A stretch of DNA of 64,000 nt from Candidatus Peribacteria bacterium RIFCSPHIGHO2_01_FULL_51_35 (GCA_001787535.1 MFXP01000002.1:21597-85596), one strand, 5' to 3'. Shown: positions 12 to 60,306, counted from the first letter of the stretch. The notes: generated from the letters alone by a model not told the origin. Numbers and translations are program-made.

Positions 12-2555
12 CTATTTGGCATTCTCCTCATCGGGCGGCAATCCGTAGTACTTTATCAAGAATTCCGCAATATCATGGAAGATGGGAGCAGCAGCCTGCG
101 CACCGTGCGTGATGTTTTTTGCTTTGGGCCGGTCGAGCTTGATGAGTGCGACGAACTTGGGATGGTTCGCCGGTGCGTAGCCGATGAACGATGCGGTCGT
201 GGAGCCCGTGCCGGTTTCATACTTTCCGCCGGGACCTGCGATCTGGCTGGTTCCGGTTTTTCCGGCAATGTGGTGCCCTTTTACTTTGGCGGGCTTCGCA
301 TAACCATTCGTCACGGAACTCACGAGCATGGCCGTGATGGTGTCCGAGGTCTCCGGCGTGATGACTTGGTCGATGATGCGCGGTTCCGTTTTTTCCACGG
401 TGCCGTCCGCATGCAGTATGGAATCGATTATGGTGGGACGCATCAATTTTCCGCCGTTGCTCAATGCCGCGAACGCCGTCACCATTTGCAAAGGCGTTAC
501 GGAGACGCCTTGTCCGAAAGCGGCGGTGGCAAGCAGCGATCGACTCCAGTCGTCCCAGGGGAGCATCTCTCCGGGAAGCTCATCTTCCAGTTCGATGCCC
601 GTCAGGTGTCCGAAGCCGAATCGCGTGAGCATGCGGTGGAAGAGTTTGGGTCCCAGTTTGTCCGAGACGCTCGTCATGCAGGTGTTGATGGATAGTTCCA
701 AGCAATTCGTCATCGTCACTTTGCCGTAGTACGTGAGGAGCGAGTTCTTGATGGTGTATTCGTCCACTTTCACGGGACCCGTGTCATTGTAGATGTCATT
801 GGGCGCCACTTCCCCCTGGTCGATGGCAATGGCCATGGTAATAGGCTTCATGACGGAGCCCGGTTCGTAGATTTCTTGGATCGTGCGGTTCAAGTACGCG
901 CCGACGCCGATGTTGTTCTTGAACTTGAGCCACAGATCCGGATTTTCCGTGGGAAACACTTCGCGGCGGTTGTTCTCACCGATGTAATGGTAATAGCGCG
1001 CAAAATCTTCCAAATCGTAGAGCTGCTCCAGGTCCGCGAGCGCCGTTCGCGTTTTCTCACTCAAAAATTCGCGTCCCTCCGGGGTGAAGACGTCATTGCG
1101 GTACGCTTTCACCACGCGCACGTTCGTCTCCGGATGGAACACTTCCACGACGATCTGGTTCCGTTTCCCTTCATTCAAGAAAATCGGTTCTTTTTCGTAG
1201 ACGACCGCGTAGTTGTTGCTGTCGAAGAGCGGGGCGTTCACCATCGCGAGGATGCGTCCCGTGAACGGGTCCATGACGATCACCTGGCCGCTGTCCGCGG
1301 CATACTTTTCGATGGCAGCTTGCAAGATCGTCTCCACTTCTTTTTGGATCGATCGGTCGATGGTCAGCGCCACGGTGTCGCCGTCTTTCGGATCGACGAT
1401 GGATTGATCCGCCGTGAGAATCTGCCCGCCATGCGGGTCGCTGACGGTGCTGATGAGTCCTTCCTGGCCGCGCAGTTGCGGGTTGAACGTGCGCTCGACG
1501 CCGTACTGCGCTTCTTGATTGGTGTTCAAGAACCCGATGACGTGCGATGCGATGGTCGTATCGGGATAGAATCGCCAGTGCTCCTGAATGAGCGCGATGC
1601 TGCGGAGAGGGGATTGAATCTCTTGCGCTTCCTTGGTGGTTGCCGCTTTTTCTTTCAGAATATCCGTCTCCTTTATGGCTTCCAACTGGGCTTCTTTAAT
1701 CATTAGCGAGAGCGCGGGCGGCAAACGACGCATCACCGAAACGTAGCGAAGCGGGCGTGACCGAAGCAGGCGACGGAGCAAGACGGGATCCATGGCGAGA
1801 GGAACAGCCAACTTTCGCGCATGGGAATCGACGTAGGGTTGCGTGATGTCTTCCGGATTCGCGTAGATCAACTTTTCGTCTTCATGCACTTCGATGCCCT
1901 GGATATTCAGATCGACGACAGCTTTCATCTGCACTTTGGTGGCTCCGTACTTGAGCGGGACGAACGTCACTTTCCTCTCCGAAATTTTGCTTTCTATTTC
2001 GCGTGCGAAGAGTCGCTTCACTTCCGTGCGATCGGGAAGATGCAGAATGTCCGTCGGTGGGCGTGTGGCGGGAATCGGCTCGAAGACGACCCCCGAAGAG
2101 ATGCGCTTCATCTGCTCCACGGGATCAAAAGCCGCTGCGTAGAAGGGGATCAATTCGCGCGGACAGGTTTGCTCACCGGCCGTGCAGTGCGCGTGAAATT
2201 CCTCCGTGACGAGAATATCGGCAAGCGTTTCCGCCACCTGTGTCGCGTCATCGGTGATCAACGGATCGACGTAGACGAGATCCAGCGTGGTGTTCGTTGC
2301 GAGCAAATTCGTTTCTTCCGTTTTGCTGCTCATGCCCAAAATTTCGCCGCGTTTCGCAGGGAGACGCACGCCGCCAAAGTGCTGGGCCTGCGCCGCTTCG
2401 TGGTATTCCTTGCCGCGCACGAGCTGGAGTTCGATCAAGCGCGAAACGATAATGAGCAGAGCCAGCAGAAAAAAACCATGAACGATGGTCATTCTCTGCA
2501 GCAGCGAGCGTCGCTTCTGCGTTTCGGACTGTGAAATCTTCGGGCGAAGAGCCAT
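12..2555 (-). CDS. ftsI: Class B penicillin-binding protein (FtsI/PBP2-like transpeptidase) with large insertions
   Basis: N-terminal TM helix, dimerisation domain (AKRGEI...GVERTFN), SxxK motif EPGSVMKP, SxN motif SIN, KTG motif GKTGT. Confidence 0.85.
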   Translation of the reverse strand: MALRPKISQSETQKRRSLLQRMTIVHGFFLLALLIIVSRLIELQLVRGKEYHEAAQAQHFGGVRLPAKRGEILGMSSKTEETNLLATNTTLDLVYVDPLITDDATQVAETLADILVTEEFHAHCTAGEQTCPRELIPFYAAAFDPVEQMKRISSGVVFEPIPATRPPTDILHLPDRTEVKRLFAREIESKISERKVTFVPLKYGATKVQMKAVVDLNIQGIEVHEDEKLIYANPEDITQPYVDSHARKLAVPLAMDPVLLRRLLRSRPLRYVSVMRRLPPALSLMIKEAQLEAIKETDILKEKAATTKEAQEIQSPLRSIALIQEHWRFYPDTTIASHVIGFLNTNQEAQYGVERTFNPQLRGQEGLISTVSDPHGGQILTADQSIVDPKDGDTVALTIDRSIQKEVETILQAAIEKYAADSGQVIVMDPFTGRILAMVNAPLFDSNNYAVVYEKEPIFLNEGKRNQIVVEVFHPETNVRVVKAYRNDVFTPEGREFLSEKTRTALADLEQLYDLEDFARYYHYIGENNRREVFPTENPDLWLKFKNNIGVGAYLNRTIQEIYEPGSVMKPITMAIAIDQGEVAPNDIYNDTGPVKVDEYTIKNSLLTYYGKVTMTNCLELSINTCMTSVSDKLGPKLFHRMLTRFGFGHLTGIELEDELPGEMLPWDDWSRSLLATAAFGQGVSVTPLQMVTAFAALSNGGKLMRPTIIDSILHADGTVEKTEPRIIDQVITPETSDTITAMLVSSVTNGYAKPAKVKGHHIAGKTGTSQIAGPGGKYETGTGSTTASFIGYAPANHPKFVALIKLDRPKAKNITHGAQAAAPIFHDIAEFLIKYYGLPPDEENAK

Positions 2556-9822: not shown

Positions 9823-10055
9823 ACTGATTTCTTACGCGTCACAATGCAGCCCATGGATTGCAGTGCGTTTTGAAGTGTTCGCACTTGGCCATGGCAACGT
9901 GAAGGAAGGAATACATGGATCTTCTGTCCCTGCGGCGATGTGCGCACCCAATTCAAAAGAGTCTCTCCGGAGTCGTCGTGTCGAGCAGTCCAGTCGATCA
10001 CGATCCAACTCTTTTCTCTTTGGGAAGCCATAAGTTGGTTTAGCAGGGAAGTCAT
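9750..10055 (-). CDS. Hypothetical protein (~101 aa) whose C-terminus is read from the palindromic element
   Basis: ORF MTSLLNQ...; no motif recognised. Confidence 0.4.
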   Translation of the reverse strand: MTSLLNQLMASQREKSWIVIDWTARHDDSGETLLNWVRTSPQGQKIHVFLPSRCHGQVRTLQNALQSMGCIVTRKKSVCQSEEPCPSAFETLGIAMPRSSV

Positions 10056-10126
10056 GTATGTAGTGTACAGATGTACACCTGAAGAATCAATTAAACAGTC
10101 TTGCACTTCGTACACCTTCCAGGCGA

Positions 10127-10200
10127 AATGACCAATGACCATAGACCAATGACCAAAAAAGAAATCACCCTGGTCATTGGTCATTGCGTCATTGGTCATT
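10127..10200. repeat. Inverted repeat built of AATGACC heptamers
   Basis: 4 x AATGACC-like units, spacer, 4 x TGGTCAT-like units; just downstream of the xer stop. Confidence 0.85.
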
Positions 10201-10209
10201 CATCATCAT

Positions 10210-11136
10210 TTATTTCCCATGGAACTTCTTATGAACCTCTTTGAGTTGAGTATTAGTCACGTGTGTATATATTTGCGTGGTCGAAAGATCTTTATGGCCA
10301 AGCAGTTCCTGCACCGACCGAAGATCTGCGCCGTTCCGAAGGAGATCAGTAGCAAAACTATGTCGGAGTGTGTGCGGAGAAGGATCCGTAACAATCCCCG
10401 CCTGCAGCGCGTATTTTTTGACGACGTTATAAATGCTGATGCGCGACAACCGAAAGTCTTCCCCCGGAGGCAGCATGTTCAGGGCTTTTCCGTGGTCACG
10501 AATAAAAAGGGGATGCAGGTGATCCAGACGAATCTCCAAGTAATCCTTCAATGCGCTCACAGCGACATCGGACAGGAAGACAACCCGGAGCTTGCTGCGC
10601 TTCCCGCGTACGCTGATCTCACGAGTATTAAAGTTAAGATCCTTGCGGTTCAGAGATCGCAGTTCGGCCAAGCGAAGGCCGGTGGAAAAGAAGAGGTTGA
10701 GGATGGCGCTGTCGCGCTTGCCGGACTTGGTGGAGGTATCCGGTGCCTGCAGCAGGCGAATCAGTTCTTCTGCAGTCAGCACTTTGACTTTTCGCTGTTC
10801 TTCTTTAAAACGCTTTACTCTGTCCGGCGGGTAGACATCCATTTCTTCTTCCTGCACCAAGTATCGCAAAAAAGCCCGTAGGATTGTGAGATGATGATTT
10901 TTGGTACGAACACCCAGCTCCTTGTTTTTCTTGGTGCGGAACTCATGGAGCTTCTGCTTATACATTCGTACACTCTCCTTGGAAAAGTCTTTGACCGATG
11001 AGAGAGGGGAAAGGCGCTGCAGAAGAGCCAGGGACTCTCGGTAGTTTTTCACCGTTAATGTCGATTTATTTTCTTCCGATTGCAGGAAGGAAAGGTAACG
11101 ATTGATAGCCTCTGTCAGCGAGTCGCGTTTGGGCAT
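10210..11136 (-). CDS. Xer-family tyrosine recombinase
   Basis: SAM-like N-terminal domain; catalytic R (TGLRLAEL), K (RGKRSK), HTLRHSFAT, LLGH, TTQIYTH. Confidence 0.93.
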   Translation of the reverse strand: MPKRDSLTEAINRYLSFLQSEENKSTLTVKNYRESLALLQRLSPLSSVKDFSKESVRMYKQKLHEFRTKKNKELGVRTKNHHLTILRAFLRYLVQEEEMDVYPPDRVKRFKEEQRKVKVLTAEELIRLLQAPDTSTKSGKRDSAILNLFFSTGLRLAELRSLNRKDLNFNTREISVRGKRSKLRVVFLSDVAVSALKDYLEIRLDHLHPLFIRDHGKALNMLPPGEDFRLSRISIYNVVKKYALQAGIVTDPSPHTLRHSFATDLLRNGADLRSVQELLGHKDLSTTQIYTHVTNTQLKEVHKKFHGK

Positions 11137-11170
11137 AGAATGGCTCTATCTTGGAGACTACCAGATCTAA

Positions 11171-11198
11171 GGTTAACATAAAATGCATTATGTTAAGT
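11171..11198. other. dif-like Xer recombination site (11-6-11)
   Basis: GGTTAACATAA-AATGCA-TTATGTTAAGT; right arm matches the E. coli XerD arm TTATGTTAAAT at 10/11; 35 bp upstream of xer. Confidence 0.8.
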
Positions 11199-11215
11199 TA
11201 TAGAGAGGTGTGCAA
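11187..11215 (-). promoter_or_regulatory. Putative sigma70 promoter of xer, overlapping the dif arm
   Basis: Minus strand TTGCAC-17 bp-CATAAT. Confidence 0.55.
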
Positions 11216-11256
11216 GAGCACTTCCCTGCCCCATTGCCTTGAATAATTCGTGTCCA

Positions 11257-11604
11257 ATGCTTCATACTCATCCTATGGAAATACCGCAAACATTCGCTCG
11301 CCTGCTCGATCGCCCTCCGCCCGGCACCGATATTGCTATGGCCATTCTCCACATTCGCCAACACTTGCCCAAAAGGTTCTTGGAATTCCCTCTCAATGAA
11401 AATGCAATTCATCAGCTTGAAGCGCACAAGCGTTCCTGGGATGATTTATTGGTGGAACAGTCATATGGAAATGATTGCGATACTGCTGAATATAAAACTC
11501 AATGTGAAGAATTTAATGCCATCAGTTTGTCCATCGCTTTGTTGCGCCATTATTTGGAGGACAATTTTAGCCAGCAGAGTGCTACGTCTGCGGCTCAATC
11601 GTAA
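11257..11604 (+). CDS. Hypothetical protein (lower-GC ORFan next to dif)
   Basis: ~115-aa ORF with no motif. Confidence 0.4.
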   Translation: MLHTHPMEIPQTFARLLDRPPPGTDIAMAILHIRQHLPKRFLEFPLNENAIHQLEAHKRSWDDLLVEQSYGNDCDTAEYKTQCEEFNAISLSIALLRHYLEDNFSQQSATSAAQS

Positions 11605-13174
11605 TGTGCGAGAGGATGCGTGGCAGTTCCCCGCTCCATGGCGGCCAGAGCTGAATCTGAACTTTCTCGACCTCCGGAAGGTTTTTGATGATCCGCAGCG
11701 CATCCTCCTTGGACATACCTGCCACTTCCTCGCGCATTTTCTTATTAAGCCTGGCGCCCGTGGGAGCAAGCGCGTCCAAGACGAATTGTTCGGTGCCCGT
11801 GAGATCGACTGTCAGCTTGATCCAGGAGAGGTCATCCGCATAGTCGATGACGTGGACGATCATGCGTTCCATTTTCAATGTATCTTTGAGTAATTCACGG
11901 CCTTCTGTGACGTGCGCTTCCAGTTCTTCGCTGAGCATATTTAAGATCGCTTGAGAGTCGTATGCATACGCGGTGTAGGAGATTTTCCCTTCGATGGGGA
12001 TGGATGTGACGGGCTCGCCCAAGAACTGCGTTGGAAGCACAAAGTCGTGATATTCGATCTTCGTCAGTTCATCGTAGTAGAGCATTTCGTAGACGACGCC
12101 TTCACCCTTGCCCACGTTCCGCAGAATCCTCTCCTCATCCACCAGTTGCTTGGCATTGGAAAGCAACTCGTGCTCCAGTTTTTTCTTCGCAAGATCCACG
12201 TCCGCTTGCGAGAGCACGGTGCGATAGGACGTCGTTCCGCCCTTCACGTCGGCTCGATTTTCCCCGTAGATGAGGGTGCGTTCCTCGGGAGCCAACCCCG
12301 GAAATTCCCATTTGATGCCTGCGGGGACATTCGCGCGCGCGCCGATGATTTCTCCGTAAATGTCCAGGTTTTCCGCACGTGTGCGTATGGTGAGCTCATC
12401 CCCCGCCGAAATGTTGATGGGTTCCAAGGTTTTGAAAATCATGCCCGCCTGGTTCATGAGTCGCGTGCCCGTGCGCAGCGAATAGCGTTCGTTGGATTTG
12501 TTGATGATCGTGATAAGAGCCTCTGCGCTCTTGCCGATGAATTCCTTGCTGATTTGATCGAACGTGATGGATTTTTCGATGATCACATTGATGGGAATGA
12601 GGGGCATGGTACGCACACGGGAGGAAGCTAGCAGCACGGCTCCCGAGGTCGTCAAAAAGATGTTCGCCGTTTGGTTGACGTTGTCTTGTCGCGGCCAAAT
12701 GCGGATTTCTGCGGACGGGAGCAAGCGGAAAAAGACGAAGAGGAAAAGTCCGGCGCTCACGGCGATCAATATCCAAATGCGGATTTTCGGCAGTGACAGA
12801 AGTCCCATGGATTGCAAGCGCGAGCGCAGTTCCTGCCGCCACACGTGCGGCGAAAAAAGGCGGATTGCTTCCTCCGCGCTCGTGTGGTCTTTGAGGATTT
12901 CTCTGAGCTCGCGCGTGCCATCCACCACGCGTACGCCGCTTCTGCGGGTCGCCATAGCCAGCGGTTTCAGTTTTGTTGCGATGCGCAGTCGACTGCGAAT
13001 TTTGACGCACTCCTTCAAAAACCCTTCGCGATCTTCCTTCTTTGGAAAGAGTGTCTCTTCACTGCCGGAGAGCATTGCGATCACTTGCCCCTCGGTTTCC
13101 GAGAGTCGTTTTGCAAATGCACTCCATGATTCTTCTTCCTTGGGAAAAAGAACGATGAGAGATTCGGGTGCCAT
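11582..13174 (-). CDS. Conserved CPR-type membrane protein with baseplate-J-like domain
   Basis: N-terminal cytoplasmic domain, TM helix followed by LPSAEIRIWP, beta domain ending in GGT, C-terminal WPPW...LP. Confidence 0.65.
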   Translation of the reverse strand: MAPESLIVLFPKEEESWSAFAKRLSETEGQVIAMLSGSEETLFPKKEDREGFLKECVKIRSRLRIATKLKPLAMATRRSGVRVVDGTRELREILKDHTSAEEAIRLFSPHVWRQELRSRLQSMGLLSLPKIRIWILIAVSAGLFLFVFFRLLPSAEIRIWPRQDNVNQTANIFLTTSGAVLLASSRVRTMPLIPINVIIEKSITFDQISKEFIGKSAEALITIINKSNERYSLRTGTRLMNQAGMIFKTLEPINISAGDELTIRTRAENLDIYGEIIGARANVPAGIKWEFPGLAPEERTLIYGENRADVKGGTTSYRTVLSQADVDLAKKKLEHELLSNAKQLVDEERILRNVGKGEGVVYEMLYYDELTKIEYHDFVLPTQFLGEPVTSIPIEGKISYTAYAYDSQAILNMLSEELEAHVTEGRELLKDTLKMERMIVHVIDYADDLSWIKLTVDLTGTEQFVLDALAPTGARLNKKMREEVAGMSKEDALRIIKNLPEVEKVQIQLWPPWSGELPRILSHITIEPQT

Positions 13175-14370
13175 TACGTTTCAAGAAGGGCTAAGGCAGG
13201 CAAATGTTTGCCCGCAATGTATTCCAGCATCGCACCGCCGCCGGTGCTCACAAATGTGTATGCATCCAGCGGATAGCCGTAGCGCCGGTGGAAATCAATG
13301 GTGTCTCCCCCGCCGACGATGGTAACGGCTCCCCGCTTTGTTGCGGCCGCAACGGCCTCCGCGATTCTCTTGGTGCCGTGTGAAAAACGATTCACTTCGT
13401 AGAATCCGAGCGGTCCGTTCCAGAGAATCATCTCCGCTTTCTCAATCACCATGATGTAGCGTTCGATGGTGACTTTGCCGATGTCGAAGATCGCCATGTC
13501 TCCGACAATGTCCTCCACCGGAAGATCGATCTTCTCAGCGCCCTCTATCGCTTCGGTGGCAACAACAGCGTCCCGCGGAACGAGAATGTTTGCTTTGCCG
13601 TCATTGTCTGCCAACAACATCAATTCCTGTGCTTTCGGTACATATGCTTCTTCATATTTCGATTTGCCGACATCAAACCCACGTGCCGCAATGAAAGTGT
13701 TCGCGACGCATCCTCCTAGTAAAATGTCGTCGCCTTTCGATAGAAATTGCTCAATGATCGGAATTTTCGTTTCCATCTTTGCTCCACTGATGATGAGCAC
13801 CAGCGGTCTGCGCGGATCATCGTGCACTTTCGACAGATATTCGAGTTCGTGCGCCAGGTTGAGTCCTGCGGAGCTTGGGAGCAACTTTGGAAGCTCCACC
13901 ATGCTGGCATGTTTCCTGTGCGAATTCGTAAATGCATCGTTCACGTACATGTCCCCCAGAGCAGCCAAATGTTTCGCAAGCGAGGGATCATTTTTCTCTT
14001 CGCCCGGTTCGAAGCGCAAATTTTCCACGAGCAACACTTCTCCCGGTTTCAAACTCATTGCCATCTTTTCCGTTTCGCTGCCTACAACATCGGGTGCAAA
14101 TGCAACCGATCTCCCGAGTAGCTTCTCGAGAACGGGAACCAGCGGCTTCTGCGTGAACGCGAGATCTTTCTTTCCTTTCGGCCGACCTTGGTGCGAAAGA
14201 ACAACGAGCGATGCTTCGGCATCCAGTATCACCTTCATGGTCGGAATAACGGCTTCAATACGTTCAAAATCCACTACTTTTCCCTCTTCGATAGGCACAT
14301 CGAATCCGGCACGTACGATCACGCGCTTCCCCTTCATTTTTGATGAATCCATTGTGCGGTAACGGCTCAT
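13174..14370 (-). CDS. pgk: Phosphoglycerate kinase
   Basis: KRVIVRAGFDVP, SHQGRP, LVENLRF, YVNDAF, WNGPLG, GGGDT, STGGGA. Confidence 0.95.
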   Translation of the reverse strand: MSRYRTMDSSKMKGKRVIVRAGFDVPIEEGKVVDFERIEAVIPTMKVILDAEASLVVLSHQGRPKGKKDLAFTQKPLVPVLEKLLGRSVAFAPDVVGSETEKMAMSLKPGEVLLVENLRFEPGEEKNDPSLAKHLAALGDMYVNDAFTNSHRKHASMVELPKLLPSSAGLNLAHELEYLSKVHDDPRRPLVLIISGAKMETKIPIIEQFLSKGDDILLGGCVANTFIAARGFDVGKSKYEEAYVPKAQELMLLADNDGKANILVPRDAVVATEAIEGAEKIDLPVEDIVGDMAIFDIGKVTIERYIMVIEKAEMILWNGPLGFYEVNRFSHGTKRIAEAVAAATKRGAVTIVGGGDTIDFHRRYGYPLDAYTFVSTGGGAMLEYIAGKHLPALALLET

Positions 14371-14412
14371 AGGTGCGTAGTGTACGCAGGAAGTGCAGAG
14401 TTTTCCACTCTG

Positions 14413-14518
14413 TTGACGGAAGATGGCTTCAGTATAAAATTTCATCAAGTGAACGCCATGATGGTGTTCGCACGGCGGCTGAGTGTTAAGGGACTAGAGA
14501 GGTGCTCAGCCGCCTCTT
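14413..14518 (+). ncRNA. Small-RNA-like unit 1 (promoter, hairpin, GCGG-stem hairpin)
   Basis: TTGACG-16-TAAAAT; hairpin 14449-14471; hairpin 14474-14514 (GGCGGCTGAG/CTCAGCCGCC) followed by TCTT. Confidence 0.5.
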
Positions 14519-14529
14519 CATACGAAATG

Positions 14530-14611
14530 TGATATAATTTCTTCACGTGCAGTCGAAACTGCACGTATGAGAACAGCGGCCAAGAACCTTCGGGTTCTTG
14601 GCCGCTTCTTT
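14530..14611 (+). ncRNA. Small-RNA-like unit 2
   Basis: Extended -10 TGaTATAAT; hairpin ACGTGCAGT-cgaa-ACTGCACGT (14545-14566); linker GAAC; hairpin AGCGGCCAAGAACC-TTCG-GGTTCTTGGCCGCT followed by TCTTT. Confidence 0.55.
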
Positions 14612-14633
14612 GATGATATTTTGTAATGATTAC

Positions 14634-14756
14634 TTGACGTTCCTTCCACTCACATTAGTATTTTGATATGCAGCAGCTCTCCAAATCTGTTGCATGTAAG
14701 CAAGGCGAGCTTTTGCTCGCCGGCGGTTGGGACAGGTACCCCCAACCGCCTTTTTT
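14634..14756 (+). ncRNA. Small-RNA-like unit 3
   Basis: TTGACG-16-TAGTAT; hairpins at 14668-14695 and 14704-14721; GGCGGTTGGG/CCCAACCGCC (14722-14750) followed by T6. Confidence 0.55.
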
Positions 14757-14772
14757 CGGCTTCGGACAGAAG

Positions 14773-14875
14773 TTGACGTATTCAATCTTTTACGTAAATG
14801 AGTATTAGTACCTTGCAGCTTGCTGCAAGCGAACAGCGGTCGAGTGCTTCTCCACAGGCCTCGACCGCTCATTTA
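14773..14875 (+). ncRNA. Small-RNA-like unit 4
   Basis: TTGACG box (weak -10); hairpin CTTGCAG-CTTG-CTGCAAG (14812-14829); linker GAAC; AGCGGTCGAG/CTCGACCGCT (14835-14869). Confidence 0.5.
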
Positions 14876-14916
14876 AAAATTCAAGGAATGAGTCTTTTCC
14901 TCTATCATCGGAAGCA

Positions 14917-15984
14917 ATGACTTTGCTTCCACTTCTTGCGTTTGCCCTCACTGCACTGGTTCATCTGGCAGCACTGAAAATTTTTCCGGCGCTCGGAATT
15001 CTGGATTTTCCCGAACGGTACGGATTCAACCGCCCGAGACTCCCCTATCCAACGGGAATCCTTTTGATTATTTGTTTCATCGCAATTTTTCTTTTTCTCG
15101 AAGAAATGACGATGCAGTCTGTGGGCGTGACCATCGGAATCGCGCTGCTCGGCATCTTCGCATTCATCGATGACCGCACTCCCCTCCCCTCTTCGCTCAG
15201 GCTCGGTATTCAGATCCTGGTTGCGCTGATTATTTTCCTCACCGGAACACGCATCTTTTCGCTCACGAATCCTCTTTCTGTCGTTTTCCCTTCCTCTGTC
15301 ATCGACCTGGATAACCTGGTTATCCCTTGGGCCTTTTTTAGCAATCCTTCCGTCATTGGAGCGCTGTTCACGGTCATCTGGCTCGGGCTCACGATGAATG
15401 CCTTGAACTGGTTCGATGGTATTCCGGGACAAGTGAGCACACTCTCGGCGATCGGTTTCTTCACGATTGGATTTCTTTCGTTGAGTGACCGCGTGAATCA
15501 ACCCGAACTCGCAACGATCGCTTTTGTTCTCGGATCCATCTCCTTGGCGGCACTGCTTTTCGATTTCCCCCCGCCTCGCGTGCTCATGGGCGATACAGGG
15601 TCGATGTTTTTTGGCCTCATGCTCGGCGTGCTTACGATCTACGCGGGTGGAAAAGTGGCAACGGCGTTCCTTGTCCTCGGCGTACCATTGATTGATAGCT
15701 TGATCGTGATCGTGCGACGTTTGCTGAAAGGCGTTTCGATCTTCCGTGGCAATACTCGCGATGAACATCTTCACCATCGCTTACTTCTGAAAGGATGGTC
15801 TGCGCGGCAGATTATTTTGCTCACAGCGGCCATCGGTGCAGGCTTCGGCACGAGCGCTCTCTTCATGAGCACATTGGAAAAATTCCTTGCGGGGATCGTG
15901 TTATTCATTCTCATGCTGTTTCTTTCCTATTATTCACGTCCCGAGATCGATCCCGCAGGCGCGGGATCGATCTCTACGAAATAA
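14917..15984 (+). CDS. Glycosyltransferase family 4 (WecA/TagO/MraY-like polyprenyl-phosphate GlcNAc-1-P transferase)
   Basis: Multi-TM; FIDD, NALNWFDGIPG, LMGDTGS, HLHHRL motifs. Confidence 0.88.
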   Translation: MTLLPLLAFALTALVHLAALKIFPALGILDFPERYGFNRPRLPYPTGILLIICFIAIFLFLEEMTMQSVGVTIGIALLGIFAFIDDRTPLPSSLRLGIQILVALIIFLTGTRIFSLTNPLSVVFPSSVIDLDNLVIPWAFFSNPSVIGALFTVIWLGLTMNALNWFDGIPGQVSTLSAIGFFTIGFLSLSDRVNQPELATIAFVLGSISLAALLFDFPPPRVLMGDTGSMFFGLMLGVLTIYAGGKVATAFLVLGVPLIDSLIVIVRRLLKGVSIFRGNTRDEHLHHRLLLKGWSARQIILLTAAIGAGFGTSALFMSTLEKFLAGIVLFILMLFLSYYSRPEIDPAGAGSISTK

Positions 15985-22490: not shown

Positions 22491-22544
22491 TTTCCTCGCA
22501 GCGGAAGATCGTGGTTCGATGCGCTCACCATAAACTATCTTCCG

Positions 22545-23108
22545 CTACATTTTGAGGAAATATTCGTGCAATCGTGTTTCCCCACGAACCTCCGGGTGGC
22601 ACGTTGCAATGAGGATATTTTTTTGTCGAGCAACGACCGGATGCCCTTTATGTGTGGCGAGCACGTTTGTTCTCCGTCCCGCTCGCGTGATGATGGGAGC
22701 ACGTATGAAAGCGACATCCACTGATTTTGCGAGGTCTTTGACATCGATGCTTGCTTCAAAGCTTTGCAGTTGCGATCCGTACGCATTGCGATCCACCGTG
22801 ATGTCGATCAATCCCAAAGACTTCGGGGCGTTCCTTCCCGTAATCTTCCTCGCGAGAATAATTGCGCCAGCACATGTTCCAAAGATCGAGAGTGTTTTTC
22901 TTCGAACTCTTTTGATGATCGCACGATCTAGTTTTGTCTCACGTAAAAATTTTGCTATGACCGTGCTTTCCCCGCCCGGAATGATCAGTTTTTGTACACC
23001 TGCAAGATCATCCACAGTGCGCACTTCTATGGAAGTGATGCCAAGGCTCCCTAGCACTGCTTTGTGCTCAGAAAAATCGCCGTGGAATGCTAAAATCCCT
23101 ACTTTCAT
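22545..23108 (-). CDS. pdxT: PLP synthase glutaminase subunit
   Basis: IPGGEST, FGTCAG, RNAYGSQ, FIRAP, HPE. Confidence 0.95.
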   Translation of the reverse strand: MKVGILAFHGDFSEHKAVLGSLGITSIEVRTVDDLAGVQKLIIPGGESTVIAKFLRETKLDRAIIKRVRRKTLSIFGTCAGAIILARKITGRNAPKSLGLIDITVDRNAYGSQLQSFEASIDVKDLAKSVDVAFIRAPIITRAGRRTNVLATHKGHPVVARQKNILIATCHPEVRGETRLHEYFLKM

Positions 23109-23140: not shown

Positions 23141-23208
23141 AAGTGCCAAGGGCGAAGTGCCATGTGCCAAGTATTTCCTTGGCACTTCGAACCTGGCACT
23201 TGGCACTT
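23141..23208. repeat. Inverted repeat built of AAGTGCC heptamers
   Basis: aagtgcc aagggcg aagtgcc atgtgcc ... ggcactt cgaacct ggcactt ggcactt, between pdxS and pdxT. Confidence 0.8.
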
Positions 23209-31210: not shown

Positions 31211-31250
31211 GGAGCGTTACCCCGGCACTTAAGTGCCGGGGTAACGCGAT
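31211..31250. repeat. 34-bp perfect palindrome with GAGC...GCGAT ends (REP-like)
   Basis: GCGTTACCCCGGCACTT|AAGTGCCGGGGTAACGC at 31214-31247. Confidence 0.75.
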
Positions 31251-32539: not shown

Positions 32540-32560
32540 GAAATAATTGTAACATGAATA

Positions 32561-32628
32561 AATGACCAATGACGCAATGACCAATGACCAACACTATCTT
32601 GGTCATTGGGATCTGGTCATTGGTCATT
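32561..32628. repeat. AATGACC heptamer inverted repeat (inverted sibling of 10127-10200)
   Basis: Same arms, including the irregular 8-nt AATGACGC unit; different spacer. Confidence 0.85.
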
Positions 32629-32637
32629 ATATGGTAC

Positions 32638-33180
32638 CTATATGGTCATAATCTCCTGCTCCTTCTTCTTCGCCGTTTCCGCAATCTTCGCGTTGAACTC
32701 ATCCACGTCTTTCTGCAGCTGTTCCAAGAGCGTTTCACGGACATCTTCATCCTTTTCCGGCTTGATGGCATCGTGCGCTTCCTGGCGGTTCTTGCGTATG
32801 GAAATACGTGCTTCCTCCGCCAGTTGATGCACCACTTTGGAGAGCTGTACTCTCCGCTCCTCCGTCATTGGCTGAAAATTCAAACGAATGAGTACTCCAT
32901 CGTTCACGGGATTTGCTCCAACATTGGCCGCTTGCAGCGCTTTTTCCACGTTTGCCAGCACAGATCTGTCCCACGGCTGCACTGCAATGGACCGCGCATC
33001 CGTCACGCTGATGCCCGCAAGGGATTTGAGCGGTTGTCTCTGCCCGTATGCTTCCACGTCAACGTTTTCGATCAACGCCGCGTTGGCTCTGCCTGTTTGC
33101 AATTTTGCATACTCGTTCAGTAAATAGTGCAGAACGCTTTCTGCTGATGCGCGAAATTGTGCGACGCGAGGATTGTTCAT
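32638..33180 (-). CDS. frr: Ribosome recycling factor
   Basis: LQTGRAN, VEAYG, QPWD, MTEERR, ARISIRKNR. Confidence 0.93.
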   Translation of the reverse strand: MNNPRVAQFRASAESVLHYLLNEYAKLQTGRANAALIENVDVEAYGQRQPLKSLAGISVTDARSIAVQPWDRSVLANVEKALQAANVGANPVNDGVLIRLNFQPMTEERRVQLSKVVHQLAEEARISIRKNRQEAHDAIKPEKDEDVRETLLEQLQKDVDEFNAKIAETAKKKEQEIMTI

Positions 33181-58400: not shown

Positions 58401-60306
58401 AACCGGCTCCCGTCCAAACAAACAACTCCACGTCATTGCCGCTATCGGTTGCGACAACGGAAATATCGTCACTGAGCGGATCATTCGCCATGTCTATCCA
58501 TCCATTGTACGTTTGCCCGTTGTTATTCGCAGGGCCATCCGTTTGGATGCCGCCCCAACTCGTCGTGTAGATGCTGTACCGTAAATTTGCAACGCCGTCA
58601 TCAGTCACGACCGCGAGGCCTGCCCCGGTTGTTTCTTCATACGCAAGATCGAACTTCTGGGCGTTCGTGTTTGTGAGGTCATCCACGGGGTTGCTCTCGT
58701 CGTCCCACGCGGAACCCGTCCAGTGCGCCAGGAACAGGTCGTTCAAGTGATCGGAGACGCCGACGAGCATCTCGTCGCTGCGAAAATTCGTGAGGCGTTG
58801 TCCCCGAGCAACGAGGCGGACCCACTCGGGCTTTCCGTTCACGCCGACTCCCGTCATATCGATGTCATTCGTGGTGTCCGGGGAGAACGTCGAGCCGCAG
58901 GCGGGCGACGGTGTCCAGCTCGTTCCGTCCCAGACGCAATAGTGGACATTGCCGCCGCCCGTCGTGATGCCGCCACTCCCAAAGACGACGATTGCATCTC
59001 CCGAGAGCTGTTCGTACGCCACATCGAACCCACGCATAAGGCCTCCACTAAGCGTCAGCACCACTTTGGGCATGGTCGCACGCAGCGACCAGTCCCCTGC
59101 CGCGTTGCAGCCCCCTGTGCAGGTGAGCACGTCCATCCGGCCGGTTTCCTTTTGATGGACCGCAATGAACTCCTCACGCGTGGGAGACGCCATAACCTTC
59201 ACGAAACGGATGGCTTGCCCGTCCGTTGCGACGGACAGGATCTGCGCACCCGATGTCGTCGGGTCGGTGTAGAGGCGATTATTCAGGTCGCCGGGGTTCG
59301 TGGCAGACTCGCTGTAGACCAAAATACCGCTGTTGGAAACAGCATCCACCGCAAGAAGCCAATCTTGCTCCTCCAGCACAATGGTGTCGCCCGCGGAGGA
59401 ACGGAAGCGTATGGGCCCGAGTGCATGGAGGGCAGGGCTCTTGGTGGGAACCACGTAGCGATACCATACGTTGGCTTCCTCTCCACGAACGGGGAAATGA
59501 ATCTCTTGGCCATTTGCGTTCGGGCGGAGTGTCGCACCGGTCGAAAACCCCTCGACCTGCAGAGGAAACGGAACTGTTTCGATAAGAGTGCCGGAGAAAG
59601 GCAACGCGCCTCGAAGAGTGAAACGCATGTCGTACTGCTCCTGTGGAAACAGGCGCGTTGCCCCATTGCGGATAAGTGTGAATGCGGCATCGTTCGAAAC
59701 CGCAAACATTCGTTCGAGCGACTGCGGACCACCGGGAGTATCGACGGTGAGAGTGACGACGTGGATGCCAAGGGTTTGTGCGACAAACGATGCGGTGTAA
59801 TCGGCAGTATCCGAGATCGCACGATTACCGCACCGCTCGATTCTCCGGACCGTCCCCTCCTCGGACGAGAGAATGGTCGTATTGCCATCCGGTGCCCGGA
59901 CATTGATGCTCAGAAGCCCGTCACAGACCGTCTCTCCGGCCTGATCGACAATGCCAATCTGGAAAGAAACCGCCTCTCCAATGCGGTAGGACGATTGCGG
60001 AACGTTGAGAGCGAGCGTCCAGAGCTCCCCTTGGGAGAGGTCCCCTCTCCACCGGTTCGCGCACCCTGCAAGAAACAGAACTGTGATAAGAACTGCCGGC
60101 TGTACCCACCGTTTCTGCGGAGAAAGCATCCTGTAAGCAGCAGCGAGAGAGGCTCGCACCCGGGAAAGATCCACGGGCGTGAGTATATCCAAAGCCGTCT
60201 GTGAATCAAAAGGATATTGGTGAGCATAGAAGCGAGCCGGAATAAATTCCGGAGACGTGTTTGCCGTTAGCCGCCGATTTAAATCGGCGGCTAACGGATG
60301 AAGCAA
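55435..60306 (-). CDS. Large exported/surface protein (1623 aa) with LamG/concanavalin-like domain
   Basis: Lipobox-like LAGC; beta-rich T/S/D/G composition; GLIGYWKFDEG...WHHVAGVYDG...GKIDDIRIYNRAL. Confidence 0.85.
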   Translation of the reverse strand: MLHPLAADLNRRLTANTSPEFIPARFYAHQYPFDSQTALDILTPVDLSRVRASLAAAYRMLSPQKRWVQPAVLITVLFLAGCANRWRGDLSQGELWTLALNVPQSSYRIGEAVSFQIGIVDQAGETVCDGLLSINVRAPDGNTTILSSEEGTVRRIERCGNRAISDTADYTASFVAQTLGIHVVTLTVDTPGGPQSLERMFAVSNDAAFTLIRNGATRLFPQEQYDMRFTLRGALPFSGTLIETVPFPLQVEGFSTGATLRPNANGQEIHFPVRGEEANVWYRYVVPTKSPALHALGPIRFRSSAGDTIVLEEQDWLLAVDAVSNSGILVYSESATNPGDLNNRLYTDPTTSGAQILSVATDGQAIRFVKVMASPTREEFIAVHQKETGRMDVLTCTGGCNAAGDWSLRATMPKVVLTLSGGLMRGFDVAYEQLSGDAIVVFGSGGITTGGGNVHYCVWDGTSWTPSPACGSTFSPDTTNDIDMTGVGVNGKPEWVRLVARGQRLTNFRSDEMLVGVSDHLNDLFLAHWTGSAWDDESNPVDDLTNTNAQKFDLAYEETTGAGLAVVTDDGVANLRYSIYTTSWGGIQTDGPANNNGQTYNGWIDMANDPLSDDISVVATDSGNDVELFVWTGAGFSEGTDDISAEATVGHVAATAWTRNSQRALYMWTDASVFTSDMECWTSAGGFTSVVADVGNPNISNEDDVEDMAIVSSCNNNRMLLTRRSIEATVGDDIRALTYSDATGCADADWVSIGELLDVNAEQGTRTNTVSLVHHSSYVPYSPWSLNWRFYDDETVDDPSTGLNGAAENVTPTSVDSEEFIRLRMNMSERAGGTGLDIRKKLQYTSGCNPDAAGGEATCTWVDVGDTGETSAVWRYATAAETCTACTDGNTSTTSSLTGTDQTGPAVFYVSDKDAAADLDFDHFETKVVEIDFPLKAEDVGLTTTYYFRLYEPVISSVGMDTGIFREQDNDGANDCATAVCTYPSLTTATGPQTTITGTVYSDEGTSVIGANITVALSIDGAAVTTSDDTDAGGMYTFSINQQTGAVLTLFLNDETEDGVLVSLGQGNNMTGMTIYQDHLIARSESGAYTITSTHLNTSDGTGDDDLSAIYSLEASNIVTLGLNKELWVWVGDTYTPGARIKTHDLSVSGSLVLGTNGLVVSGSLIARTGTLTTSTGILLNSRMTSETLSLGTNATQNLTLDNGLIGYWKFDEGRGATAAKDSSQYGNHGVSTNLEVGTDWSASVPPRVQFYDPSSLDFDGVDEHVRVTNSSVFNFTRPGITVATWFTADTQTDEDNNYFISKPNTSSTVQWALLLRDFAADNPQGLTFIVETTGGLTALGPNDSNFYTDGAWHHVAGVYDGVTQSIYIDGALAASTPKTGTIVTTGDMDLFFGTYKEDTTTLPDRHDGKIDDIRIYNRALTASEINALYNGGKSTGSGVYVLGSNLDVNGNLNIYSAALDASAGNYNVTLSGSAALYGDFTKRSGTFTLDGGDQTISGSTVFHNFTKTVTSAQTLTFDHTSRQSISGALTLRGAASNLMSLRTTKTGSASNLLLDGDGGSQTIDFLDVLDSDASGGDALVCSDVAEECTDSGRNTNWDFGEPPGGPAATKHWGKIWLPMFSF

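Follow-up and report, generated by a model that had tools for sequence, protein, structure and literature searches.

Why would a bacterium with a genome of 1.2 Mb keep 546 nt of gene-free, hairpin-filled DNA between two divergently oriented genes? This question is raised by a locus of Candidatus Peribacteria bacterium RIFCSPHIGHO2_01_FULL_51_35 (genome G000 in our numbering; 18 contigs, 99% complete), in which positions 14371-14916 separate pgk, encoding phosphoglycerate kinase, from a gene encoding a glycosyl-phosphate transferase of the MraY/WecA family (GT4). The locus was analyzed within a window of 64 kb (contig C2, positions 21597-85596), and coordinates without a contig name follow the numbering of that window. 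A non-coding stretch of this length is costly for such a genome, whose median intergenic gap is ~76 nt and whose gaps of at least 500 nt number 6 of 932 according to a crude call of open reading frames (ORFs), in which the pgk/GT4 gap itself was masked under spurious ORFs. We found that the gap is made up of AT-rich, unstructured spacers alternating with four GC-rich modules of two or three hairpins (GC content 0.23-0.37 in spacers and 0.6-0.73 in hairpins), to which we refer as units 1-4. The explanation that we favor, with a confidence that falls a little short of even, is that the units are a young, species-specific cluster of four sibling small-RNA (sRNA) genes on the + strand, at least units 1-3 of which would be transcribed separately.

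Layout and paralogy of the four units

All four units share the layout that the original prediction for this gap had proposed, with a promoter-like box, a 5′ hairpin and a 3′ hairpin that starts with RGCGG and ends with CCGCY, all on the + strand. The promoter-like site of unit 1, TTGACG-16 nt-TAAAAT (14413-14440, with TAAAAT at 14435-14440), agrees with the consensus at 10/12 positions. It precedes an RNA candidate of ~74 nt (14447-14520; -36.1 kcal/mol) that comprises a 5′ hairpin of 10 bp with two G-U pairs (14449-14471) and a 3′ hairpin (14474-14514) with the stem GGCGGCTGAG, a 21-nt loop and a weak tail, TCTTCA. Unit 2 is without a -35 box and has an extended -10 box, TGaTATAAT (14530-14538), which a rough organism-specific matrix places in the 95.5th percentile among all TAnnnT sites. 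Its RNA candidate (~68 nt, 14545-14612; -43.6 kcal/mol) contains a 9-bp 5′ hairpin with a CGAA loop (14545-14566), a linker with GAACA, and a 14-bp 3′ hairpin (14575-14606) with a cUUCGg loop and the tail TCTTTG; the 10-bp aligned part of the latter stem is AGCGGCCAAG. This 3′ hairpin was the sole terminator-like site flagged within the gap in a scan. Unit 3 is preceded by TTGACG-16 nt-TAGTAT (14634-14661, with TAGTAT at 14656-14661; 9/12 consensus matches). Its RNA candidate (~89 nt, 14668-14756; -45.8 kcal/mol) has a 9-bp 5′ hairpin with one G-U pair and the loop CUCUCCAAAU (14668-14695), an extra, middle hairpin (14704-14721) that makes it the only three-hairpin unit, and a 3′ hairpin with the stem GGCGGTTGGG (14722-14750), followed by TTTTTT. 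Among the genome's 41 non-coding promoter matches, that of unit 3 had the most stable promoter-proximal 100 nt. A weak hairpin with a GGACA loop (14756-14776) lies between unit 3 and the next TTGACG, in a stretch (14752-14812) whose folding was not significant (z -1.3). The site of unit 4, TTGACG-16 nt-TAAATG (14773-14800, with TAAATG at 14795-14800), has a defective -10 box that lacks the final T; it was not reported by the promoter scan, and no TAnnnT was found at any usable position of this unit. Its RNA candidate (~69 nt, 14807-14875; -33.3 kcal/mol) carries a 5′ hairpin with a CUUG loop (14812-14829), the linker GAACA, and a 3′ hairpin (14835-14869) with the stem AGCGGTCGAG, a 15-nt loop containing CUUCUCC and a weak tail, CATTTA. 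The three TTGACG boxes, each 16 nt before a TA-starting hexamer, and the extended -10 box were recovered at exactly the positions predicted for them, and the UUCG loop of the unit 2 terminator and the CUUG loop of the unit 4 5′ hairpin likewise proved to be present as claimed.

The four 3′ hairpins were aligned (alignment A3) and a covariance model, R1, was built from them, with which units 1-4 score 44.6, 49.3, 42.2, and 53.2 bits, respectively. Common to the four hairpins is a 10-bp stem, RGCGGYYRRG, in which 40/40 cells are Watson-Crick paired. Compensatory changes were present in 5/10 stem pairs, all of them transitions with both sides changed, while the number of one-sided changes was zero. 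The covariation score of 0.60 was reached by 0/500 shuffles, and sliding the partner by 1-3 columns lowered pairing to 30-55%. The expectation that the stems would vary in sequence and keep pairing was therefore borne out, and these results support the conclusion that the four units are paralogous and structured, with their pairing held by compensatory changes.

Units 1 and 3 share GGCGG...CCGCC, and units 2 and 4 share GAACAGCGG...CCGCT, GAACAGCGG being present in both of the latter as predicted; the GAACA linker is also confined to units 2 and 4. Two pairs of copies of this kind would fit the duplication of a two-unit block. The predicted TGCAG...TGCA core of the 5′ hairpins of units 2-4 was found in the variant form TGCAG/YTGCA, and its flanking pair, as judged by eye, is G-C, A-U, and U-A, respectively; MAFFT misaligned the 5′ hairpins, and their covariation was therefore left out of the counts above. 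In addition, the -10/start region is alike in 15/18 nt between units 1 and 2, and units 3 and 4 have TTGACG and an ATTAGTA stretch in common. Contigs from four DNA runs span the gap without differences, so that there is no strain variation with which to test the stems, and contigs from DNA runs break near a 14-bp palindrome. Individual DNA runs hold 53-99% of the words of the locus, and no RNA run was listed among the holders.

Folding strength and strand

Taken together, positions 14353-14916 (564 nt) fold to -231 kcal/mol on the + strand (z -10.0) and to -203 kcal/mol on the - strand (z -8.0), values that were matched by 0/100 shuffles on either strand. Folded singly, units 1-4 had z-scores (+ strand/- strand) of -4.2/-3.5, -9.9/-8.2, -5.6/-5.4, and -5.6/-3.7, respectively; the AT-rich spacers were unstructured (z -0.9 and -1.3). 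The gap is also the densest hairpin cluster in the genome, with 5/493 of the genome's perfect hairpins (at least 9 bp, loops of 3-25 nt) packed into 396 bp, compared with at most 4 in other 500-bp stretches.

The two strands differ in several respects. All G-U pairs are on the + strand, as had been claimed, and so is the cUUCGg loop of unit 2; there are three such pairs, located in the unit 1 and unit 3 5′ hairpins, and on the - strand they would become A-C mismatches. The + fold is better than the - fold by 28 kcal/mol, and R1 scored the copies at 42-53 bits on the + strand and at 17-24 bits on the - strand. Because the G-U pairs, the cUUCGg cap, and the R1 scores are all strand-specific, the + strand is favored, which points to an RNA-level feature on this strand.

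Promoter-like boxes and leaderless starts

Of 2171 long frames in the genome, 459 have TAnnnT 5-10 nt before the start codon, compared with 100/2171 at control positions, and 31/104 TTGACN-16..18-TAnnnT sites are followed by an ORF of at least 100 aa that starts 5-12 nt after the -10 box. Since -10 boxes cluster just before start codons, the organism in all probability uses sigma-70-type promoters, and many of its mRNAs would begin without a leader. Candidatus Peribacter riflensis is listed among organisms in which Shine-Dalgarno sequences are scarce (PMC10783764), and this fits the leaderless layout seen here. Both genes bordering the gap have such a layout. The -10 box of pgk, TACACT (14379-14384, - strand), lies 8 nt before the ATG, and an A[GT]T[GC]TA box is found there in the gaps of relatives. 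That of the GT4 gene, TATCAT (14903-14908, + strand), also lies 8 nt before the ATG, ranks in the 98.3rd percentile in the rough organism-specific matrix, and is matched by a -10 box retained at the GT4 position in relatives with gaps of 44-125 nt. The leaderless layout is apparently the norm, and the pgk and GT4 boxes are kept across about 19 relatives. Since the GT4 gene has its own leaderless promoter, the modules are not needed as its leader.

The promoter-like boxes of the units are credible in this genome. The -10 boxes of units 1-3 (TAAAAT, TGnTATAAT, and TAGTAT) end 8, 6, and 6 nt, respectively, before the first paired base of the 5′ hairpin. A promoter-like site leading into a perfect hairpin is a rarity, seen at 5/1064 hairpins genome-wide, unit 2 included. 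The rough promoter matrix is weakly informative, and the -35 signal of the organism is faint.

Comparison with relatives and known RNA families

The divergent pgk/GT4 order is kept in 19/21 family genomes with a pgk locus and in 0/8 genomes outside the family; of the two exceptions among the 21 loci, one is cut at a contig end and the other has no GT4 match. In relatives, the pgk/GT4 gap is between 44 and 655 nt long. At the equivalent gap position and on the same strand, the same-genus genome G001 carries a single module of like layout, in which TTGACA-17-TAACCT is followed by a 5′ hairpin where transcription is predicted to start, then by a middle hairpin, and last by a 10-bp terminator with AAUUUUUAUU. 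The module folds with a z-score of -5.8 on the + strand, and its sequence is unrelated to the units. In another genome, G002, the pgk/GT4 gap holds two tandem 43-nt hairpin repeats. The pgk/GT4 slot thus seems to turn over hairpin RNA-like modules.

Other relatives have different contents in this gap. Some carry tandem words of their own there (for example, L008, L009, and L012), and in 8/19 relatives (L012, L013, L014, L016, L017, L018, L023, and L024) the gap contains a minus-strand ORF of 115-141 aa that is weakly Shikimate_dh_N-like, at E-values (0.015-0.034) that fall below the cut-off. We considered the gap as a remnant of this ORF, and rejected the idea when tblastn found no trace of it in the gap or elsewhere in the genome.

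Searches at the sequence level gave no convincing copy of the units elsewhere. Within the genome, the only R1 hits above 24 bits were the four units, and BLAST of the gap against its own genome found no second copy. BLAST of the gap against 60 relatives yielded matches of 24-27 nt in 3 only, which we treated as chance; the one in G011 falls within a Clp-type ATPase gene, and the other two are without a matching hairpin module. A blastn search against phages and plasmids gave no match. A metagenome scan with pgk found no closer relative, the best match being 62% identical.

At the Rfam 15 gathering threshold, three tRNA matches (RF00005) were found in the window and none in the gap, in agreement with the statement that the units belong to no recognized family. 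The best Rfam match of the gap was Pxr sRNA (RF01812), which resembles the units in having two or three hairpins with a long, GC-rich terminator as the last; at 21.9 bits (E 0.17) against a gathering threshold of 80, the units are not members of this family. A closer likeness is offered by tandem sibling sRNAs, such as LhrC1-4 of Listeria. Further examples are PrrF1/PrrF2, OmrA/OmrB, AbcR1/AbcR2, and the csRNAs (PMC4211561). Like the units, sibling sRNAs are paralogues of ~70-110 nt in one intergenic region, each with an orphan promoter and a terminator hairpin, derived by local duplication with partial sequence divergence; here, these properties are predicted from sequence. The known siblings are more than 65% identical and have a single-stranded seed, whereas the similarity among the units is nearly confined to the stems. 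The units also differ from them in forming four copies, in a genome without Hfq, and in being a species-specific cluster. The kind is thus already known, and the units would be a new, unusually diverged candidate member of it.

Alternative explanations

Several observations weigh against an array of sRNA genes. A promoter-like box had been claimed for each unit, and 3/4 units do have a canonical -10 box, but unit 4, with TAAATG, does not. Similarly, the 3′ hairpins had been described as followed by Ts, and while all four hairpins were found, good U-tracts are present in units 2 and 3 only, those of units 1 and 4 (TCTTCA and CATTTA) being poor. An unpaired seed motif common to all four units was not found. 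R1 had hits in 0/40 relatives at E of at most 0.1, and in 150 family genomes it gave single hits of 20-26 bits in 9, none beside pgk or the GT4 gene; local alignment to the gaps of both same-genus genomes scored at shuffle level. The idea of a structured RNA family stood as far as folding is concerned (z -4.2 to -9.9), but had no homologue in the 190 relatives searched. Because there is no homologue in relatives, the covariation rests on four paralogues of one genome. Since these relatives are distant (pgk at most 74% identical), the absence of homologues is only weak evidence against function. A single event of replication template switching has been reported to create both a perfect Watson-Crick stem and paired changes (PMC8794818), and the compensated stems could have arisen in this way. 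Moreover, duplication alone could account for the three TTGACG boxes in 365 nt (0.054 expected locally; ~0.2 such clusters genome-wide). Palindromes abound in the genome, which has 9 matches to Y1 transposases (RAYT/IS200-type), with adjoining hairpins that bear GTAG/CTAC, and a dispersed palindrome, with the arm CCGTAGCGGAAGATCG and its reverse complement, occurs at 10 loci and has the same AGCGG...CCGCT base as units 2 and 4. The units may accordingly be DNA-level palindromes, either of the repetitive extragenic palindrome/bacterial interspersed mosaic element (REP/BIME) type or products of template switching, that have piled up in a tolerant gap, with the boxes as by-products of duplication and with no dedicated RNA. 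Clustered GC-rich palindromes in a gap, in a genome with Y1 genes and REP-like families, are what such elements look like; the species-specific distribution of the array and the lack of wobble pairs in the ten-pair stems would be expected as well, and five related hairpins with compensating stems adjoin a Y1 gene at C5:16975-17230. We nevertheless consider this explanation, the main rival to ours, unlikely. Above 24 bits R1 finds the four local copies, at one locus and not dispersed, and the REP-like copy within the window scores 9.5 bits, which is noise. There is no GTAG at the base of the unit stems, and all four copies are in one orientation, in contrast to both orientations in the C5 cluster. 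The 64-kb window is free of Y1 genes; on this contig, the closest match is at C2:117129. REPs do not usually lie between divergent promoters, as the units do. Strand specificity is seen in the G-U pairs, in the UUCG loop, and in the covariance-model scores, which depend on the flanks. Finally, REP-type elements would leave unexplained the alternating, promoter-like AT-rich spacers and the second hairpin that accompanies each 3′ hairpin.

The remaining alternatives accept RNA or protein products of other kinds. The entire gap might be transcribed from the unit 1 promoter as a single long + strand RNA, a leader with several terminators that would control read-through into the GT4 (envelope glycan) gene, after the manner of the attenuation or processive-antitermination leaders known from polysaccharide operons. 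Operons headed by WecA-type genes often have long, regulated leaders, all hairpins here are oriented toward the GT4 gene, and a frame open from 14798 closes as ATGA on the GT4 start codon; read-through would be plausible at the terminators of units 1 and 4, which lack U-tracts. Such a leader is improbable, however, for a gene that has its own -10 box and that relatives manage to maintain behind gaps of 44-125 nt with no conserved leader; in addition, the terminator of unit 3 is canonical (a 10-bp hairpin and six T), and the genes that follow GT4 (CutA1-like and ArsR-type) are no glycan operon. That the units are instead leaderless mini-genes for small peptides is suggested by potential start codons behind the -10 boxes, GTG at 8 nt in units 1 and 2 and ATG at 6 nt in unit 3, exactly the arrangement of leaderless genes in this genome (8 nt in both pgk and GT4), and by the frames of 28, 7, and 46 codons that follow. 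By a rough estimate, chance alone would put a start codon at 5-10 nt behind a -10 box with a probability of ~0.25 per unit. Pfam matched 0/5 gap ORFs, and an 80-aa minus-strand ORF had no relative in a protein search; for the short + strand frames, no homologue search was made. Because strong hairpins and the T6 terminator of unit 3 lie inside the frames, and because the units share stem pairing and not peptide sequence, we find peptide genes very improbable and read the three start codons as probable relics of duplicated leaderless promoters. An antitoxin-like function had also been suggested, and did not gain support, as no toxin-like ORF was found in the gap. Least credible of all is a protein-binding or guide array, of the CsrA-sponge, CRISPR or TIGR type. 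The genome has two CsrA genes (C9:6743-6898 and C3:16631-16777) and no Hfq. A decoy function in the form of a CsrB/RsmZ-type sponge fails, with 7 GGA motifs in the gap compared with 11.5 expected. A CRISPR array, already dismissed in the original prediction, was rejected here too, as near-identical repeats are lacking (direct repeats reach 20 nt at most, with 70% identity) and no neighboring gene is cas-like. TIGR stem-loop arrays occur in bacteria belonging to the candidate phyla radiation (CPR; PMC12045711), and TIGR-Tas systems resemble the units in their tandem hairpins with variable palindromic stems and variable loops. However, no match to PF01798 (Nop/Tas) was found in the genome, whereas four control genomes matched; two spacers with C/D motifs would not fit into loops of 4-21 nt, and the units are set apart by promoter-like spacers. 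The 21-nt loop of unit 1, the longest, gave no viral match, and the guide-like function once proposed for the units is disfavored on both grounds.

Proposed origin and function of the units

Returning to the explanation that we favor, four paralogous sRNA genes would have arisen by local duplication in this species. Units 1-3 would each start from their own sigma-70-type promoter, with transcription beginning at the foot of a protective 5′ stem-loop and stopping at the RGCGG...CCGCY hairpin, giving RNAs of ~68-90 nt. Units 2 and 3 would terminate transcription efficiently, with leaky termination at units 1 and 4, and the unit 4 RNA may be made weakly or via read-through. The working parts are likely to be the variable loops and linkers, such as CUCUCC in unit 3, CUUCUCC in unit 4, and the 21-nt loop of unit 1, and the most likely mode of action would be Hfq-independent base-pairing with mRNAs. 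A scan for targets by 12-mer complementarity stayed at chance level, with 9-33 sites per unit, compared with ~10 expected, and the longest runs, of 14-15 nt, were not at a gene start.

A broader view, which we offer as an improbable speculation, takes the locus for a nursery in which a reduced CPR genome brings forth new regulatory RNA genes. A leaderless promoter with a remnant of its start codon would have been combined with one of the genome's REP-like palindromes and then duplicated four times. Pairing would have been kept while the loops diverged, yielding fast-evolving, species-specific, Hfq-independent hairpin RNAs, and turnover of the slot would be genus-wide. The palindromes of the genome may have been the raw material for the terminators.

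A limited literature search found no regulatory small RNA described from CPR/Patescibacteria. Because orphan promoter-hairpin modules fill 546 nt of a compact, Hfq-less genome, the units are among the clearest candidate trans-acting RNAs in this often leaderless genome. If expressed, they would provide a concrete handle on RNA regulation in a lineage of uncultured episymbionts, as well as a clean case of sRNA genes born by tandem duplication, with their stems compensated. If silent, the locus would show that palindrome-generating processes can mimic covariation.

Gene neighborhood and other structured loci

The left border of the gap is set by the start of pgk at 14370, which agrees with the N-termini of relatives; the gene (13174-14370, - strand) encodes 398 aa with a Pfam PGK match at E 2e-126. 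The GT4 gene (14917-15984, + strand) matches Glycos_transf_4 at E 9e-24, and its closest public relatives carry the titles Candidatus Peribacteria, Peribacteraceae, or Peregrinibacteria. Other neighbors are housekeeping genes or genes of unknown function, and include a XerC-type integrase (3 kb to the left), a CutA1-like protein, an ArsR-type regulator, an M23 peptidase, and TsaE. Cumulative GC skew peaks at ~10000-12000, beside the XerC-type integrase gene (10210-11136) and a low-GC region at 6-12 kb, and this region might mark either the terminus of replication or an island's edge. A replication origin was considered for the gap and rejected, as the window has 14 DnaA-box-like sites compared with 10 expected, 1 of them in the gap, and the turn in GC skew is ~3 kb away.

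Nineteen other structured gaps or orphan-promoter loci of the genome gave only tRNAs in Rfam, and none of them resembles the units. Orphan promoters leading into structured, terminator-ended stretches were seen at C3:~1000-1241 (L202) and C15:~77300-77479 (L203), both on the - strand, and the loci L212 and L216 have a large structured element in common; none of these matches Rfam.

The units are not the only carriers of the RGCGG...CCGCY signature. With short loops allowed, it occurs at 14 loci, comprising the 4 units and 10 copies of the AGCGGAAGAT palindrome. This palindrome, which has a GTAG motif, is located at 22500-22558 of the window and at C4:40707, C4:136722, C4:160473, C9:44738, C15:22733, C15:22968, C16:39251, C16:69999, and C17:11895. 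Two of the 9 Y1_Tnp matches adjoin the hairpins that bear GTAG/CTAC. The C5 cluster (L218) adjoins a Y1 fragment at C5:16723-16914, and its hairpins, of the form GAGC-NNN-TCTTCGA-NNN-GCGAT with compensating 3-nt stem variants, have a BIME-like look. Inverted short tandem words (heptamers of the ATGACCA type, and GTGCCAAG) give rise to long hairpins at 10119-10200, 32550-32640, and 23141-23206. Perfect hairpins of 15 bp with TTAA loops are located at 31214-31247 and 60264-60297, with the common flanks GGAATAAATTCC upstream and GCGAATTYATTCG downstream, and the latter hairpin recurs at C8:34527-34560 beside a Y1_Tnp match.

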